Assembly: GCA_038087875.1 (NCBI GenBank) | Contig: CM075989.1 | Span: 5,208,001 to 5,272,000, forward strand | DNA length: 64,000 bases | Reading direction: 5' to 3' | Source of the DNA: Malacoraja senta | Lineage: Eukaryota | Part shown: positions 9,531 through 44,129 of the stretch, piece by piece | Layout of the letters: each line of letters begins with the position of its first letter | Numbering within the stretch: the first letter of the stretch is position 1 | The notes under the pieces: generated by a model | Told to the model about the DNA's origin: nothing | Databases searched by the model: none | What the model saw: only the letters and a program-made list of their open reading frames with translations | Made by a program: the position numbers and the translations under genes

Positions 9531-9864
9531 TAGTGTTTGCAAACTATCCTTAAACCAAGCATCCTCGCCACTTCAATGGCCCCTTGGATGATATTCTTTG
9601 CCTTGTTTGAGGGCTGTCCCACCAGACTCTGCCCTTCAATGTCCCGCAGCTGCAGTAGATGAACAACAGCCTGATGTATGTTCTTGTTGTCCACATCGTG
9701 CAGTGGAGAATGGGGAGCGTGTGTTTTTGCATCCTCTGTTGATCTGTTGTGGACTCTGAGCCTGCTGTGCTGCGGACTTTGAAATGGCTCAGTGAGCAAC
9801 TCGTTTAAAGTCCAGTTTTGCACGGGCAATAAATGCTGGCCCTTCCACCGATGTCTACATTTCC

Positions 9865-10276
9865 AATCTTCTCCGTGGATTGTCACCTTGTCGTGGTGGA
9901 GAAGCTTGTGTGGTCCTGAGATCCTGAGAGCGATGCCGTCCGGAGCTATGCCCCTGGTAGGGCCACCCATGGCGGTGAGGTCGAGGGGGAGGTCTCTGAC
10001 AAAGAGCGATCCAACCAAGACCTCAACGTATGGAACAGGCGGAGGACGATGGCTGATGTTAGTGGAGCGTCACAACGGCTGGGAAGGCGGATGAAGGCTG
10101 CAGCAGAAAAGGGTCTCCGGTGGTCTTGGACTCCATGCCACTGGATCCTGACCTAGATCTGTCAAGGACCGTGTGGTGGCTGTCTGTGCACCAGTTGCCC
10201 CACGTTAAACAAAGTCACGCACAGGCATCCTCCATGAGAGGACAGTCATACTCGTTTCGAGTGACCACCGATGATG
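9865..10276 (+). mobile_element. Non-autonomous RTE- or ingi/Vingi-related retroelement headed by an HDV-like ribozyme fold
   Basis: 8-bp TSD ACATTTCC at 9857-9864 and 10277-10284; (GAT)n tail; no RT ORF. Confidence 0.75.
9868..10013 (+). ncRNA. Putative HDV-like self-cleaving ribozyme
   Basis: P1 CTTCTCC/GGAGAAG, P2 TGGATTGT/GCGATCCA, P3 ACC/GGT, L3 TTGTCGT, J4/2 CAAA with candidate catalytic C at 10000. Confidence 0.65.
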
Positions 10277-10470
10277 ACATTTCCGTGAATACATTTTAAA
10301 AGTCTATCTCGCAATCAATGTTATGGTTCTGAAAGGTTCTTAATAGGCACTTGGACCTTGAAAGCTCTTGAAAACCAACGATTAGGTAGGTTTAGGTTTT
10401 GGTTTATGTTTGTTATTGTCATGTGTACTGAGGTACAGTGAGAAGCTTTGTTTAGCGTGCTATCCAACAG

Positions 10471-12394: not shown

Positions 12395-15300
12395 ATGTCC
12401 TGAACACATCATCAGTGATATAACCTGGGGGTGATTGGGTGTTTCGGGTCTTTCAACATCAGACACCCTCGCCCAGGCGACCCAGCCGTGGTTTGATCAG
12501 ACCATGACTTGTGTTCAGGTGGCATTCGCTCCCCCCCATGGACCTTCTCTACTGATCCAGAGCCATCTCGAGGCCTTCTCCGCTGCCTCTGTGGTGTTCA
12601 TGATGGCTCTTCTCCTCTCCATTCCGTTGATGCCCAGTGCACTCAAGGCTTTGTAGAGCGATTGCCCTGCAAAAACCTCTGCAGCCAACCTCAATGGGCA
12701 TACACCTTGCCTTCCAGCCCTGCTTACGGCAGTCTATGACCAGCTCTTCGTACTTGGCCATCTTCCTCTCGTGGGCCTCCTCCAGACGGTCGTCCCACGG
12801 CACTGCCAGTTCCAACAAAGACGATGTTTTTGGTCGCCTCTGAGACCAGGAGGATGTCTGGCCTCAGGGTGGTTGTGGCAATGTGCTGTGGGGAACTTCA
12901 GCTGTTTCACCAGGTCTACAGAAAGCTGCCAGTCCTGCGCAGTCGCCTTCCTGACGGATTCCTGGCTGCTGTGGTTCTTGGCAGCTGCACTCCGGCCTTC
13001 ACGAAGGTGATCATCTGGGTGGTGGGGGGTGCCTCGTCTGCAGCTGCTGATTCCCACGCTGATGGTTTCTGCAATGGGTTTAAGAACCTGGTCGTGACGC
13101 CAGGTGTACCGGCCCTGCCCAAGAGCCTTTGGGCAGCAGCTCAGGATGTGTTCCAACGTCCCCTTGCCTGAGCATTGCGGGCAATCTGGAGATTCCACTT
13201 TGCGCCAGATGAAGAGGTTTGATGGGCTGGGCAGGACATCATACACTGCCTGGACCAGGAACTTGATGCGCTGTGGTTCAGCCTGCCAGAGCTCAGTCCA
13301 TGTGACTTTTCGGTCCATGGCCTGCTCCGACCTTGTCCAGGCTCCCTGCTGCCTCAATCTAACTGCTCTGGTACACCTCTCCTCCTCCACCACTGCCCTC
13401 ACTTCCTCCTGGGCCAGCCTGCCCCTCTCCTTCCCCTTGGCCTTGTCAAACTGGGGAGTTGGGAAGATTCCCAGGCCAGCTCTTCCCCGAGTCACTGCTC
13501 CCACCAGGACTCTGTGGCGTATCCGAGACTCCGCTTGCAGCACGGCTTCGCCGGCTCTCCACTTCCTCCCAGTTTTCACCTCCACCCCTGCCTGAGCCAC
13601 CTTGGGGTCGCTGGAGTCCCTGTACAGCATCACCTCTCTGGCCCGAGTCATCTTAAACTCCTCCTCCAGGGACTTCAGGGGCAGCTGGAGCTTGGTGTTA
13701 TTTACGTAAAGGGCGATGCTGCTAAGGCTCCTGGGCAGTCCCAGCCACCTCCTGAGGAAGCTGCTGACTTTCCTCTCCAATCTCTCTATGATGGATATTG
13801 GGACTTCGTAGACAAGCAGTGGCCAGAGTATCCTTGGCAGGATACCATGCTGGTAGATCCATGCCTTGAACTTGCCGGGAAGCCTCGACCGGTCCACTGC
13901 TCTCAACCAACTCTTCAGCTCCTGACAGGTTGCCTGGACAGATGCTGCATCCTTCAGGCTGCTGTTAAACACCTTGCCAAGACTCTTCACTGGCCTTTCG
14001 GAGACAGTTGGGATTGGTGTCCCTTCGATGCTGAAGCGGAACCTGTCCATGACTTTGCCCTTCTTCAGCACCAGTCACCTTGATTTTCCTGGCTTAAACC
14101 TCATCCTTGCCCATCCAATGAGTTTTCTCCAACCCTGCATGATCCACCTGCCTCCTGGCACTGACTCAATGATGACAGTCAGGTCATTCATGAATTAGAT
14201 TTTTTTAGATTTTTAGATTAGATTTTTATTCCTTGTCATTTGAACCTCAAAGAGGCTCAGACGAAACTCCGTTTCCACAGCCATACAAACAAAACAATTC
14301 CTACACGACACACAAACAATTCAATTTACAGAAAACATCTATCACAGTGAATCTCCTCCTCACTGTGATGGAAGGCAAAGTCTTTTCTCTCCCCTGCACC
14401 AATTTTTCTCCCGATGTTGAAGCCCCAGGCGGGCAATGTTAAGTCCCACGGCTGTGAGGCCGCGCCTGGCGGTATACGGCCTCGCTCTGGGCCCAAAAGT
14501 CACAAAGTTGGAGCCCCGGAGGGCGTTGGAATGTCCCGCAGCCCCCAGGTCGTCCCGGTCAAAGGACGTTTCACGGAGCCAGGCCCCAACGACAACGGAG
14601 ACCCGACAGGGAAAAAGTCGGGTCTCCCGTACAGGGAAGAGATTTTTAAAGTTTCCCCCCTCCCCCCCCCCCGCCCGCCTGCCACATATACACAATTACA
14701 AACAGTACAAAAAACACAAACAACTACATTTAACTAGACAAAAATTAAAAATAAACAGACAGGCTGTAGGGGCCGCTGCAGTAATCCGCGCCGTCGCACC
14801 GCCGGTTTGGTGGTTCTGATTGGTGGTTGGCGCAGTCCTGACTTGGTCCAAAGGCCCCATGCACTCTGGCTCAGCAGACTTGACGATCATGTTCATTGCC
14901 AAGGCAAAAAGGGTCACAGAGATGGTACAGCCTGTGATGATCCCAACCTCCAGTCTGTGCCACTCTGATGTTACTGACCCTGAGGAGACTCTCATGCTGA
15001 ACTGGTTGTAATAGTCCAGGAAGAGATCTGCCACTTGGCCCGGCACATGATGCTTGGCCATGACTGTCTGGATCAGCTTGTGCGGGATGGAGCCGGAGGC
15101 GTTGGCCAGGTCAAGCCAGAGCACTGTCAGGTTTCCCTTGTTCTCCCTGGCTTCTCTGATGAGCTGGGTCACCACTCCCGTGTGCTCTAGGCACCCCGGC
15201 ACTCCAGACAAGCCTCCCTTTTGCACTGAGCTGTCGATGTAGCCATTGCTGGCGAGGAAGTTGGTCAGCCGCCTCGCCAATATGCTGAAGAAGATCTTGC

Positions 15301-15492
15301 CTACAACGCTTAGCAAGGAGATGATCCTGAACTGATCGATCTTCTTGGAATCTTCTTCCTTTGGGATCCAGACTCCTTCAGCAAATCGCCACTGCTGCGC
15401 CACTTTCCCCTCTCCTCCAGACAATATTCAGGATCTTCCACAGCCATTTCAGTAACAAGGGGGCAGCTCTTGTAGACCCTGTTTGGGACTGC
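12395..15492 (-). mobile_element. HERO-like (R2 superfamily, restriction-like endonuclease) non-LTR retrotransposon, 5'-truncated and frameshifted
   Basis: RT motifs QFRIISLL, WLDLANA.GS, GIITGCTISVTLF, FMND; zinc knuckle CPQC...HILSCC; RHDQVL; RPD..ELAVPW..K.AKY endonuclease; 3' UTR AAAGACCCGAAACACCC. Confidence 0.88.
14195..14811 (-). mobile_element. GC-rich non-autonomous retroelement, copy 3, inserted in HERO RT
   Basis: Perfect hairpin GGAGACCCGAC/GTCGGGTCTCC at 14597-14627; short-repeat tail; HERO frame resumes on both sides. Confidence 0.8.
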
Positions 15493-28079: not shown

Positions 28080-28489
28080 GTGCTTCCATCTACATACATT
28101 ACTGTAATATGAACATTGCGAGGCTCCATTTCACCCAGATGTTATCTTATATTCCAAATTCAAAGCAGCTACAGGCTAGTTTACATTACGGTTACCACGA
28201 TGCAATGGCCCCAGAATTGTAACCATTATCCATTATATTCATGATCACTTCTACTTGAGATTTTCATGTAATTATACAAAGCAATTCCCAAAACGTTGAT
28301 TTAGTTTAAAAAATCTGGAATCCCATGTAATGGGAATGGAATTTGATTTTTAAAAAAGCAACGGCAGTAATTATTTTTAATTAAGTCAGCTTTTGGGATT
28401 ACGTTAAAAATATACTGGCTTAATAACAGGTCGTAGAGGAATAGGGCTGAGACTGAAGGTGGTTTTAAGTGAAAACAGAAAGACAAACA

Positions 28490-28910
28490 GTGGGAAAGAT
28501 AGGGTGGGGAGGGGGAGAGAAGGGAGGAGAGGGAAGGAGATGGAGAGGGGAGGGGGAGAGAGGGGGAGGGGGGTGGGTGGAGAGATGGAGGGGTTATGGC
28601 TGGGGGGCAGAGAGAGAGGGAAGGGGATAGAGGGGAAGGGAGGGGGAGAGGGAGGGAGGAAGAGAGAAGGGGAGAGGAGGGAGGAAGTGAGAGAGAGAGA
28701 GAGAGAGGGAGAGTGAAGTAGGGAGAGAGGAGGTAAGAGGGAGGGGGAGAGATGCAGAAAGAGAGGGGGGTGGAAGGAAAAGAAGGGAGAGAGGGAGGGG
28801 TGGGGAGAAGGAGGGAGGGAGAGAGGGGGAGAATGGGAGGGATGAGAGGGATGGGGGTAGGGAGAGAAGGAGGGAGGGAGAGAGGGTGGAGAGCGAGTGA
28901 GAGTGATGGG
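28490..28910 (+). repeat. Polypurine (GA-rich) low-complexity tract
   Basis: Almost only G and A on the + strand. Confidence 0.95.
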
Positions 28911-28976
28911 CAGTGGAAGGAGCAGCAGCCGGGGGTAATCGCCTTGTCCCAGCGCCCAGTGCCGGAGCCCAGGGCA

Positions 28977-29281
28977 GGGTGTGTGTGTGTGTGTGTGTGG
29001 GTGTGTGGGTGTGTGGGTGTGTGGGTGTGTGTGGGTGTGTGGGTGTGTGGGTGTGTGTGGGTGTGTGGGTGTGTGGGTGTGTGGGTGTGTGTGGGTGTGT
29101 GTGGGTGTGTGGGTGTGTGGGTGTGTGTGGTTGTGTGGGTGTGTGGGTGTGTGTGGGTGTGTGGGTGTGTGTGGTTGTGTGGGTGTGTGTGTGTATGTGT
29201 GTGTGTGTGTGTATGTGTGTGTGTGTGTGTGTGTGGGTGTGTGTGTGTGTGGGTGGGTGTGGGTGGGTGTGTGGGTGTGTA

Positions 29282-29313
<32 letters not shown>

Positions 29314-29320
29314 TGTGTGT

Positions 29321-29359
<39 letters not shown>

Positions 29360-29492
29360 TGTGGTGTGTGGGTGTGTGTGGGTGTGGGTGTGTGTGTGTG
29401 TGTGTGGGGGTGTGTGTGGGTGTGTGTGTGTGTGTGTGTGTGTGGGTGTGTGTGTGTGTGTGTGTGGGGGTGCGTGTGTGTGTGCGTGTGTA

Positions 29493-29528
<36 letters not shown>

Positions 29529-29535
29529 TGTGTGT

Positions 29536-29601
<66 letters not shown>

Positions 29602-29611
29602 GTGTGTGTGT

Positions 29612-29679
<68 letters not shown>

Positions 29680-29697
29680 GTGTGTATGTGTGTATGT

Positions 29698-29758
<61 letters not shown>

Positions 29759-29799
29759 TGTGGGTGTGTGTGTGGGTGTGTATGTGTGTGTGTGTGTAT

Positions 29800-29840
<41 letters not shown>

Positions 29841-29907
29841 TGTGTGTGTATGTGTGTGTGTGTGTGTGTGTGGGTGTGTGGGTGTGTGTGTATGTGTGTG
29901 GGTGTGT

Positions 29908-29942
<35 letters not shown>

Positions 29943-29969
29943 TGTGTGTGTGGGTGTGTGTGTGTGTGT

Positions 29970-30044
<75 letters not shown>

Positions 30045-30169
30045 TGTGTGTGTGGGTGTGTGTGTGTGTGTATGTGTGTGTGTGTGTGTGTGTGGGTGTG
30101 TGTGTGTGTGTATGTGTGTGTGTGTGTGTATGTGTGTGTATGTGTGTGTGTATGTGTGTGTGTGTGTGG

Positions 30170-30242
<73 letters not shown>

Positions 30243-30639
30243 TGTGTGGGTGTGTGTGTGTGTGTGTGGGTGTGTGTGTGTGTGTGTGTGTGTGTTTGTG
30301 TGGGTGTGGGTGTGTGTGGGTGTGTGTGGGTGTGTGTGTGTTTGTGTGGGTGTGGGTGTGTGTGGGTGTGTGTGGGTGTGTGGGTGTGTGTGTGTGTGTA
30401 TGTATGTGTGTGTGTGTGTGTGTATGTGTGTGTGTGTATGTGTGTGTGTGTGTGGGTGTGTGGGTGTGTGGGTGTGTGTGTGTGTGTGGGTGTGTGTGGG
30501 TGTGTGGGTGTGTGTGTGTGTGTATGTATGTGTGTGTGTGTGGGTGTGTGTGGGTGTGTGGGTGTGTGTGTGTGTGTATGTATGTGTGTGTGTGTGTGTG
30601 TATGTGTGTGTGTGTGTGTGGGTGTGTGTGTGTGTGTGT

Positions 30640-30677
<38 letters not shown>

Positions 30678-30691
30678 GTGTGTGTGTATAT

Positions 30692-30737
<46 letters not shown>

Positions 30738-30744
30738 ATGTGTG

Positions 30745-30820
<76 letters not shown>

Positions 30821-30975
30821 TGTATGTGTGTATGTGTGTGTGTGTGTGTGTGTATGTGTGTGTGTGTGTGGGTGTGTGTGTATGTGTGTGTGTGTGTGTG
30901 GGTGTGTGTGTATGTGTGTGTGGGTGTGTGTGTATGTGTGTGTGTGTGTGTGTGTGTATGTGTGTGTGGGTGTGT

Positions 30976-31014
<39 letters not shown>

Positions 31015-31266
31015 TATGTGTGTGTGTGTGTGTGTATGTGTGTGTGTGTATGTGTGTGTGTGGGTGTGTATGTGTGTGTGTGGGTGTGTGTATGTGTGTG
31101 TGTGTATGTGTGTGTGTGTGTGTGTATGTGTGTGTGTGTGTGTGTATGTGTGTGTGTGTATGTGTGTGTGTGGGTGTGTGTATGTGTGTGTGTGTATGTG
31201 TGTGTGTGTGTGTGTATGTGTGTGTGTGTGTGTGTATGTGTGTGTGTGTATGTGTGTGTGGGTGTG
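28977..31266. repeat. About 2.3-kb imperfect (TG)n microsatellite with TGGG and TATG variants
   Basis: Direct inspection. Confidence 0.98.
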
Positions 31267-31389
31267 CTCGGTAATTGGAGCGGCAGGGAGAGGCGTGGGC
31301 AGGGAAGTCTGTGCCGCCCCACTCTGCCAGCAGCATCTCCAGTGAAGCGGGGAAGCTCACACACATACACACATACAGCAAGCAGCAAG
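31267..31389 (+). promoter_or_regulatory. Putative proximal promoter / 5' UTR
   Basis: GC-rich, CpG-containing unique sequence with a GC box (CCGCCC near 31314) directly upstream of the signal-peptide ATG. Confidence 0.45.
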
Positions 31390-31456
31390 ATGATGAACCC
31401 TGGCATGGCTCTCTTCTTCTTCATCATCAGTATCACCCTGGCCCGGGCATCCAGCG
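31390..31456 (+). CDS. Probable first coding exon of a secreted or membrane protein (signal peptide MMNPGMALFFFIISITLARASS, phase-1 intron)
   Basis: ATG with A at -3, hydrophobic core, small residues near the cleavage region (A-R-A, A-S-S), donor G|GTAAGG at 31456/31457, TE-free flanks. Confidence 0.65.
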
Positions 31457-32589
31457 GTAAGGCAGCTGCTCTGCAGCAACTTCACCCTCAATCTGATGCA
31501 TGTTTATTCGCTTTCACCAACTTTATATTGCATTGAGTCTTCTTTTCCCTGAGATCATCCGATCGCGTAGAGCAGGGCGTTTTATTAGAATAACCTCGTT
31601 TAAATCACCCATTCTCCCCACCCTTATTTTTAAAACCTGAGCGGCTGAGATGAGATCATCTGTAAAAGTGAATAACAAAAACATCCACAGCAGTTCTGGG
31701 GAAATTCACCCCCGGTAGATTTCTTAAAAAAAATATATTTTGTTGACTTTTCTTCAACAAAGAAGTGTCCCCTGGTTTATAACTGGACGTAAACAAGTGT
31801 CTCACTGCATTGAAATGATCCCCGTTGCTAATTCGGATTTGCAGTCTATAAAAAAAAAGTTCGGATAAGCCGCGTTTAAAATGGGAAAGGCATTCCCACT
31901 GTAAACCAGCCGAAGGGAACACACTATAAAGTGTTCTATATCCCTGGATTTCTTTGGGTGCGCTGAGAAATGAATCACGGATGCCTTTTAACAAGAGCAT
32001 ATGGGATGATTCACCCCCATTGGAAATTATTCCCAGGGCCGCTGCCTTTTATACAACTGAGGGAGTCAGCGTCTGGTATTACTTGGTGGGGTTTACAAAA
32101 GCGCTCCGGTGTTTTGACAACCGGTCTTTGCGTTTTATACGTGAGCGACCAAAAGACTGAGCCCACAGCTTTTTGTGTTTTAAAAAGAGCTGTTCTCTGA
32201 AAATAGTGACTCGGGAATAGATTCCCAATACGTCCAGGGAGTGAGACGCTGCTGGAAAGGTATTCTGATCTTCCCAGCTTATTTTTAAAATTCAAAACTA
32301 TACATAGACTGACTGGAACTGCTTTTATTTGTGAATGGATGTTATAAAAGTGTGAATACTTTGTCTAGATGAGCAAAGAACAGAAACTATGGAGTCCCCC
32401 CAAAGTCTATTTCTATGGTGTTATCACCCCATAAAAACAAATATTGATACATATTTACTCATAAGTACTCAGTTCCATATTGTCAGTTGACAAGTTTATT
32501 ATTTTCATAAACACGGAAATACAGTGAAAAGCTTTGTACAGCATGATATCCAATCTGATTAGATAATGCAAGACATAGATACAACCAAT

Positions 32590-43841: not shown

Positions 43842-44129
43842 ACTGAATGCCTCGCCAGCGGGCACGACCTCCCATGGCCAACCTGGAAGACCCTCAACAG
43901 ATTACGAGTGGAGCAGGGGAGGTGTAAAGCACTTATGAAAGCATGGAACTACCAGGCAGAAGACACATGCAGCTGTGGAGCAGTACAGACAATGTCCCAC
44001 CTACTGGAGTGTGACGACGACCCCCAGTGCAGCCCCCAGGACCTGGCTGAACCGACTCGACCAGCTGTGACCTGCGCCAGATACTGGCAGAACGACATCT
44101 GAGATTACAACGGACTCGAAGAAGAAGAA
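43842..44129 (+). mobile_element. Vingi/ingi-like LINE 3' end
   Basis: WKTLNRLR...GRC...W...CSCGAVQTMSHLLEC, very short 3' UTR, (GAA)n tail, 8-bp TSD TAGATATG. Confidence 0.7.

Follow-up and report, generated by a model that had tools for sequence, protein, structure and literature searches.

A short retroelement and its boundaries

The window, by which we mean the whole stretch of 64,000 nucleotides of Malacoraja senta DNA analysed here, contains a short retroelement on its forward strand. The element proper is 409 bp long (9868-10276), has C9868 as its first base and is flanked by a target-site duplication (TSD). Its parts are the following.

9857..9864, + strand: left TSD, 8 bp, ACATTTCC (direct reading and TSD caller)
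9865..9867, + strand: three extra bases between the TSD and the element, likely non-templated additions (copy comparison)
9868..10235, + strand: first 368 nt of the 5′ UTR of a partner LINE, 85-92% identical to its full-length copies (sequence comparison)
10236..10269, + strand: 3′ end of the partner LINE with a small hairpin at 10245-10265, likely a reverse-transcriptase recognition site (sequence comparison)
10270..10276, + strand: (GAT)n tail GATGATG, common to the partner LINE (direct reading)
10277..10284, + strand: right TSD, 8 bp, ACATTTCC (direct reading)

A preliminary description of this DNA had reported the 8-bp TSD and the (GAT)n tail, and direct reading finds both at the positions given. 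It had also reported an insert of 412 bp. The locus is indeed a retroelement insert with a TSD, but its length has to be corrected to 409 bp, because the element proper starts at C9868 and the three bases before it vary among copies: across the family, 0-4 extra nucleotides occur at the 5′ junction and differ from copy to copy. The predicted hairpin at 10245-10265 is not more stable than shuffles (z 0.17).

The insert had further been called ORF-less. Stop-free frames of 78-103 codons do overlap it, and the term is inexact in that respect; despite these frames, the whole sequence maps onto the 5′ UTR and the 3′ end of a LINE. Its head is LINE 5′ UTR and not a Pol III SINE head: a tRNA search of the element found none, the two patterns used for Pol III A and B boxes gave no match in it, and no Rfam small RNA of the tRNA, 5S or 7SL type matched its head. 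What remains of the original notion of a SINE-like parasite without a Pol III promoter is a non-autonomous element with neither a tRNA head nor an A/B box; it is not a stand-alone SINE, but a LINE derivative.

A family of short copies

The stretch 9868-10276 is one copy of a non-autonomous retroelement family with at least 288 copies. In the short element, UTR position 368 is joined to the last 41 nt of the LINE, and a 20-nt sequence of this internal junction has 288 exact matches in the genome, against 0 for the control; this count is a lower bound on the copy number. A DNA search of the same genome (1.94 Gb) gave 40 candidates that were scored, namely the window copy itself and 39 near full-length matches with 94-96% identity; the 3219 candidates of that search are not to be read as a copy number. 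The TSD caller detected duplications in 17 of 29 copies, compared with 31 of 812 mismatched flank pairs.

A first tally of 5′ ends (26 of 29 intact) was biased because most copies had been ranked by full-length score. The 5′ ends were therefore recounted on an unbiased set, the first 40 junction matches, chosen by their 3′ junction. Half of these copies (20 of 40) have TSDs, of 7-13 bp, and their identity to one young copy ranges from 84 to 98%. The 5′ end lies exactly at +1 in 11/40, within 3 nt of it in 15/40 and within 12 nt in 24/40; the other 16 start later, or, in four of these, run up to the point where the fetched sequence stops.

For the 27 best copies, the mean difference from the column majority is 2.2%, and the short family has its own diagnostic letters, with respect to the LINE, at 6 positions. 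A fixed junction, TSDs and 5′ truncations, the features of amplification as a unit by retrotransposition, are all present in the short family. The own-genome search has thus turned the single insert into a multicopy family.

The partner LINE

Comparison of the sequences shows that the short element derives, by internal deletion, from a LINE of the endonuclease/reverse-transcriptase type, 3.9 kb long, that is present in the same genome. The partner was searched for with a tail pattern from which the element's upstream letters were excluded. This gave 57 genome matches, of which 30 were fetched; in 25 of the 30, the 3′ coding end of one LINE lies directly before the common 41 nt. A longer deletion form, L136, supplied additional 5′ UTR, and a search with that UTR led to full-length LINE copies. 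In 8 of the 20 loci fetched from this second search both element ends occur collinearly at a distance of 3.0-3.9 kb (one flank is common to three of the eight); there, the 5′ part is 85-92% and the 3′ end 89-95% identical to the element, with the same starting base. The autonomous LINE that was expected to share both ends is therefore in hand, and it matches the element over its first 368 nt (85-92%) and its last 41 nt (89-100%).

The coding part of the LINE begins several hundred bases past the retained 368 nt, and about 220 nt of UTR past the ribozyme fold described below remain in the short element. The frames of the LINE match Exo_endo_phos (E 3e-9) and RVT_1 (E 8e-29). Since they are broken in every fetched copy, we infer a single APE-RT frame from the domain order. 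Altogether, the partner has an APE endonuclease and, behind it, a reverse transcriptase, a length of 3-4 kb and a microsatellite tail. The best named homologue of its endonuclease is a 'craniofacial development protein 2-like' protein (79%), a protein of BovB origin; the LINE is also 39% identical to a LINE bearing DUF6451, presumably an RTE marker. The partner likely belongs to the RTE clade, an assignment based on domain order, size, tail and similarity to named homologues rather than on a tree.

Other LINEs were considered as partners. The best DUF6451 matches and the L071 family are different LINEs with different tails, and the weak DUF6451 matches led instead to the parent of another short family (family B, see below).

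Several copies of the partner deserve a separate mention. At L198:969-1655 the endonuclease shares 79% identity with a pipefish protein and 78-85% with several other proteins; this is high for a decayed copy and may possibly reflect horizontal transfer. L136 (about 810 nt) and L149 (about 440 nt) are independent, longer internal-deletion forms, so deletion derivatives arose more than once. At L167:2470-3173 the whole 5′ UTR is inverted with respect to the coding part, as twin priming would give.

An HDV-like fold at the 5′ end

The 5′ part of the element can be arranged as a nested double pseudoknot, with P1, P2, P3 and P4 in the order of HDV-like ribozymes.

9868..10013, + strand: predicted HDV-like ribozyme, with predicted cleavage 5′ of C9868 (descriptor and covariation)
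9868-9874/9898-9904, + strand: P1, with a C1-G pair (C9868-G9904) at the predicted cleavage site
9876-9884, + strand: 5′ strand of P2, within the span of P1; 3′ strand at 10004-10013
9885-9887/9895-9897, + strand: P3 (direct reading)
9888-9894, + strand: L3, with the equivalents of U20, C24 and G25 at 9888, 9892 and 9893
9890..9905, + strand: single predicted P1.1 pair G9890-C9905, with U9889 and U9906 opposed (from the sequence only)
9912..9995, + strand: branched P4 domain (homologue alignment)
9912-9916/9991-9995, + strand: basal helix of P4, with a T-T mismatch at 9914/9993 in the window copy
9920-9923/9979-9982, + strand: inner helix of P4
9935-9958, + strand: hairpin of P4
9998..10013, + strand: J4/2, GA-C10000-AAA, with the predicted catalytic C, and the 3′ strand of P2 (10004-10013)

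Direct reading locates P1, P2, P3, L3, G9890-C9905 and C10000-AAA just as they were first described. U9888, C9892 and G9893 of L3, together with C10000-AAA, fit the HDV descriptor in the accessible text of PMC6326823. Our own descriptor, written with knowledge of the fold, comprises a P1 of 7 bp, P3, an L3 of the form YYNNCGY, any P1.1 pair, C-N-R-A and a P2 of at least 6 bp. It matches once in the element and in 0 of 3000 dinucleotide shuffles of it; it matches once in the whole window and once across 10 shuffled windows.

With respect to the family majority, the window copy is unchanged in P1, P3, L3, P1.1 and J4/2, and its P2 has one A-U to G-U change that is common to 8 of 27 copies. The partner LINE carries the same HDV-like fold, and the short element has inherited it from there. 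In L184, a full-length LINE copy, a 12-bp TSD abuts C+1.

Homologues were collected with a search pattern that fixed L3, two pairs of P3 and the bases following P1, and nothing else. It returned at least 117 metagenome loci. When three loci of the own genome were added to these, a sequence filter kept 58 and removed 62; 41 of those kept are distinct. Among the matches listed, P1 is fully paired in 24 of the 41 distinct homologues, versus 17% of 1592 swapped pairs, and P2 reaches at least 6 bp in 29 of 39, versus 22% of 1468 swapped pairs.

P1, P2 and P4 covary across 34 homologues. The alignment combines the three own-genome loci with 31 metagenome sequences out of 40, the other nine having been set aside for their long indels. 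For the full structure, 78% of the cells are paired, versus 69% in shuffles, and double-sided changes number 144, versus 66 in shuffles, with 0 of 500 shuffles as high; kinship alone can beat such a column shuffle without any structure, and a control with slid partners reaches at most 53% of paired cells. All 7 pairs of P1 and every pair of P2 show double-sided change, so the covariation that had been proposed as a check is found in both helices. In J4/2, the G, the A and two further A are invariant and the C is kept in at least 90% of the 34 homologues, which were partly selected on this motif.

The P4 domain departs from its first description. A closing stem GAGATC/GGTCTC, as drawn initially, has only 35.8% of its cells paired, and 419 of 500 shuffles score as high. 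RNAalifold independently chose the basal helix 9912-9916/9991-9995; with this homologue-supported P4, J1.1/4 becomes short, and the long J1.1/4 reported at first disappears.

In three homologues, L255, L283 and L302, the fold takes a natural minimal form: P3 and the catalytic C are separated by about 67 nt, compared with about 115, and P1 and P2 are perfect.

Position +1, P1.1 and the element boundary

The canonical HDV design descriptor, in the part of PMC6326823 available, fixes G1-Y and, in P1.1, C-G pairs. Both are inverted in the element: the G1-Y pair is absent from the cleavage site, where C9868-G9904 is found instead, and P1.1 is G-C. Among the matches listed, C occupies position +1 in 50 of the 56 homologue loci with a complete P1, and it is therefore a family trait and not decay; the preliminary description had seen it as an oddity of the window copy. 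The downstream motif of the family-B parent's UTR is present in 21 of these 56 loci. P1.1 was preset by the homologue search pattern, and no compensatory P1.1 family occurs among 27 genome matches; 13 P1.1 matches in viral contigs are chance-like and form no compensatory family either.

The search against Rfam HDV-family models suggested at the outset matched no ribozyme family: Rfam ribozyme models gave no match at E up to 10 for the element and at E up to 1 for six related loci. R2 ribozymes are described, in the sections of PMC3774820 at hand, as having little primary-sequence conservation beyond the catalytic C and four positions, and active ones are reported to vary widely. A non-canonical +1 pair therefore lowers, and does not exclude, membership among HDV-like ribozymes. 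By its sequence, the element looks like the bearer of an HDV-like ribozyme, one that lacks the canonical pair at +1.

Across 69 same-family metagenome pairs from different loci, identity is 97% at +1, 58% at -1 and 12-23% at -7 to -10. This drop just upstream of +1 places the boundary 5′ of P1 in several unrelated families. In the short family itself, the 11 copies that begin exactly at +1, and the 24 of 40 junction-chosen copies that cluster within 12 nt of it, likewise agree with the element boundary first proposed at the predicted cleavage site.

Mobilisation and alternative readings

The copies establish both the origin of the family by deletion and its mobilisation as a unit. In the reading that we consider probable, the element is what internal deletion has left of a LINE (likely an RTE), has no coding function, and likely borrows the LINE's enzyme after a predicted HDV-like ribozyme frees it from host transcripts. 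In such a cycle, Pol II would read through the element from host DNA, and self-cleavage 5′ of C9868 would remove the host leader, so that each new copy begins at +1. The LINE protein would then bind the 3′ 41 nt and start target-primed reverse transcription. On running off the RNA end, the enzyme may add the 0-4 non-templated bases of the 5′ junction; a few such bases are described for R2 in the text seen of PMC3774820.

Two observations bear on cleavage itself. The pseudoknot-free minimum-energy fold pairs the 5′ strand of P1 with a purine run near 9985-9991 (z 0.36, no better than shuffles), so misfolding is possible. The second comes from one raw RNA run (polyA, organism coded H), about 6% of which was read, giving 498 reads. 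In these, read starts pile up at no place, and 89 reads continue upstream of +1 into one common flank and thus represent uncut RNA. Most reads over the 5′ end differ from the window copy in P1 and P2, and many extend into a longer UTR; they therefore look like one uncut locus of a variant family. The letters of their P1 variant have 0 matches in the own genome. Cleavage in vivo thus finds no support in this run, which speaks weakly against it.

The boundary at +1 is also what would be expected if transcription simply started there. The main rival reading accordingly keeps the mini-RTE origin and has an internal Pol II promoter set the 5′ end, with a fold that cuts poorly or not at all and persists as a 5′ structure that gives protection or binds protein. 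The inverted pairs at +1 and in P1.1 speak for it, as do the roughly 220 nt of UTR kept past the fold and the uncut read-through reads; moreover, the accessible parts of two papers report that LINE 5′ ends drive transcription (PMC5786205) and that the R2 ribozyme fold gives cap-like protection (PMC13708176). That the boundary in several unrelated families lies precisely 5′ of a P1 of 7 bp, however, is not predicted by a promoter. Conservation also counts against it: the catalytic C is kept in at least 90% of 34 homologues within an invariant GA-C-N-AA (a motif on which they were partly selected), and U, C and G of L3 are kept as well, though L3 was preset by the search. We therefore judge this reading unlikely.

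That the short copies are repeated deletion products or segmental duplicates of LINE copies, with no family of their own, is very improbable. Other deletion forms exist (L136, L149) and some loci do share flanks (L002/L006, L004/L012 and L005/L029), as this reading would have it. It is nevertheless largely refuted by the junction count, the TSDs and the flanks: the identical junction occurs at 288 places, the copies examined have different flanks and their own TSDs, and the 6 diagnostic positions set the short family apart from the LINE.

The partner originally suggested was a LINE of the Vingi clade, exemplified by the fragment at 43842-44129, which would mobilise a SINE-like element. We give almost no credence to this reading, since fragment and element have in common only a short TSD and a trinucleotide tail (Vingi also yields bipartite elements, according to the portion of PMC5786205 seen), the fragment has no DNA similarity to the element (best E = 1.0), and a different LINE shares both element ends at 85-95%.

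Comparison with known systems

With the derivation from a LINE and the predicted ribozyme as the preferred reading, the element is a member of the bipartite non-autonomous LINE class, a design already published in other animals (PMC5786205, PMC3414825, both as partly accessible). Bipartite non-autonomous RTEs have been described, several of them named, and their intact 5′ ends have been linked to predicted RTE ribozymes (Kojima 2018, PMC5786205). RTESINE1/2, WALLSI3, MAR4_MD, RTE-N2_Lch and Bov-A are alike in that RTE 5′ and 3′ ends are joined by internal deletion, and they share with the element the lack of an ORF and of a small-RNA head, and a microsatellite tail. The element differs from them in family and host, and in the present analysis the fold has been placed on the short element itself and its covariation assessed.

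R2 SIDEs of Drosophila, in the available text of Eickbush and Eickbush 2012 (PMC3414825), also combine an HDV-like fold with the 3′ end of a parent LINE and have no Pol III promoter. Their self-cleavage in vitro amounts to 89% and 54%, and they are released from a co-transcript, whereas release of our element is inferred. Their insertions are confined to 28S rDNA and are made with the R2 or R1 machinery; the element, in contrast, is dispersed, with 6-13 bp TSDs, an APE-type partner and a predicted ribozyme.

More generally, RTEs and some SINEs are said in the text seen of PMC6765202 to use HDV-like ribozymes to leave co-transcripts. The ribozymes found in RTEs and in further non-LTR elements (Ruminski et al. 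2011, via the available parts of PMC6765202, PMC5786205 and PMC3774820) likewise form a nested double pseudoknot at the 5′ junction; they cleave at the 5′ end of elements without a promoter of their own, a cleavage that is predicted here. NARTc/RIME of trypanosomes and the Perere-3 RTE, as far as they are covered in the accessible part of PMC8501958, similarly have a 5′ ribozyme on a dispersed APE-type LINE or its deletion derivative. NARTc/RIME belong to the Ingi/L1Tc clade, unlike the likely RTE partner of our element, and Perere-3 has a twister ribozyme and not the HDV fold. The features that separate the element from the RTE HDV-like ribozymes mentioned above are C1-G instead of G1-Y, a single G-C pair in P1.1 and a branched P4 domain that is conserved and about 85 nt long.

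The CPEB3 ribozyme, a single-copy intronic RNA, has G at +1 and C-G in P1.1, where the element has C and G-C. The primer sequence in the portion seen of PMC5984629 gives it a 7-nt L3 of the same type, UU-N-N-CGU, and, as we read the sequence, only one P1.1 pair, next to a U-U opposition, as in the element.

In the literature covered (titles and abstract openings, most subscription papers being outside this scope), neither the element nor an inverted-pair subtype is described.

Implications

As the class of the element is already known, its presence is a modest surprise, and the part of most interest is the ribozyme subtype, with C1-G, a G-C P1.1 and a branched P4. We can only tentatively suggest that animal RTEs carry a distinct, active and undescribed HDV-like subclass with these three features, invisible to Rfam and repeatedly spawning promoter-less mini-elements (at least three short families in this genome).

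The published, loosely supported idea that bipartite RTEs retain their 5′ end because of a ribozyme that releases them from host RNA becomes directly testable here: the parent LINE, the junction, a predicted cleavage site and a covariation-supported structure are available. Should the fold prove to cut, the accepted rules for the HDV active site would have to be widened to include a pyrimidine at +1 and an inverted P1.1, and the homologues would provide a model for a gap in Rfam. The 409-nt element further indicates the UTR parts sufficient for mobilisation in trans, which bears on RTE-based templates for gene insertion (PMC13708176, as partly accessible).

Other ribozyme-headed families and further features of the window

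A second ribozyme-headed short family (B) is represented by L004:2035-2345, which joins the 5′ 253 nt and the 3′ 59 nt of another LINE and has a TAAG-type tail. The parent is found in L063, L067 and L070; three further short copies are among L322, L331 and L341. The P1 of family B has three compensatory pair changes relative to that of the element.

A third family (E) occurs at L186:3850-4200 (minus strand), L326 and L332, with the same fold and a (GAT)n tail; its L186 copy, of about 340 nt, lies tail-to-tail with a full-length partner LINE. L073:4262-4415 (minus strand) is the 5′ end of a further LINE family, with an AAG tail and another P1 variant of the same fold.

Elsewhere in the window, the Vingi-like fragment at 43842-44129 carries a (GAA)n tail and a frame of 86 codons in which two Cys/His clusters lie, and a Pfam scan of its one open frame gave no match. 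At 12737-15427 (minus strand), stop-free frames of 446 and 243 codons read like a reverse transcriptase from a further non-LTR element. A GT-rich simple repeat of about 3 kb, with a strong strand skew, spans 28304-31533.
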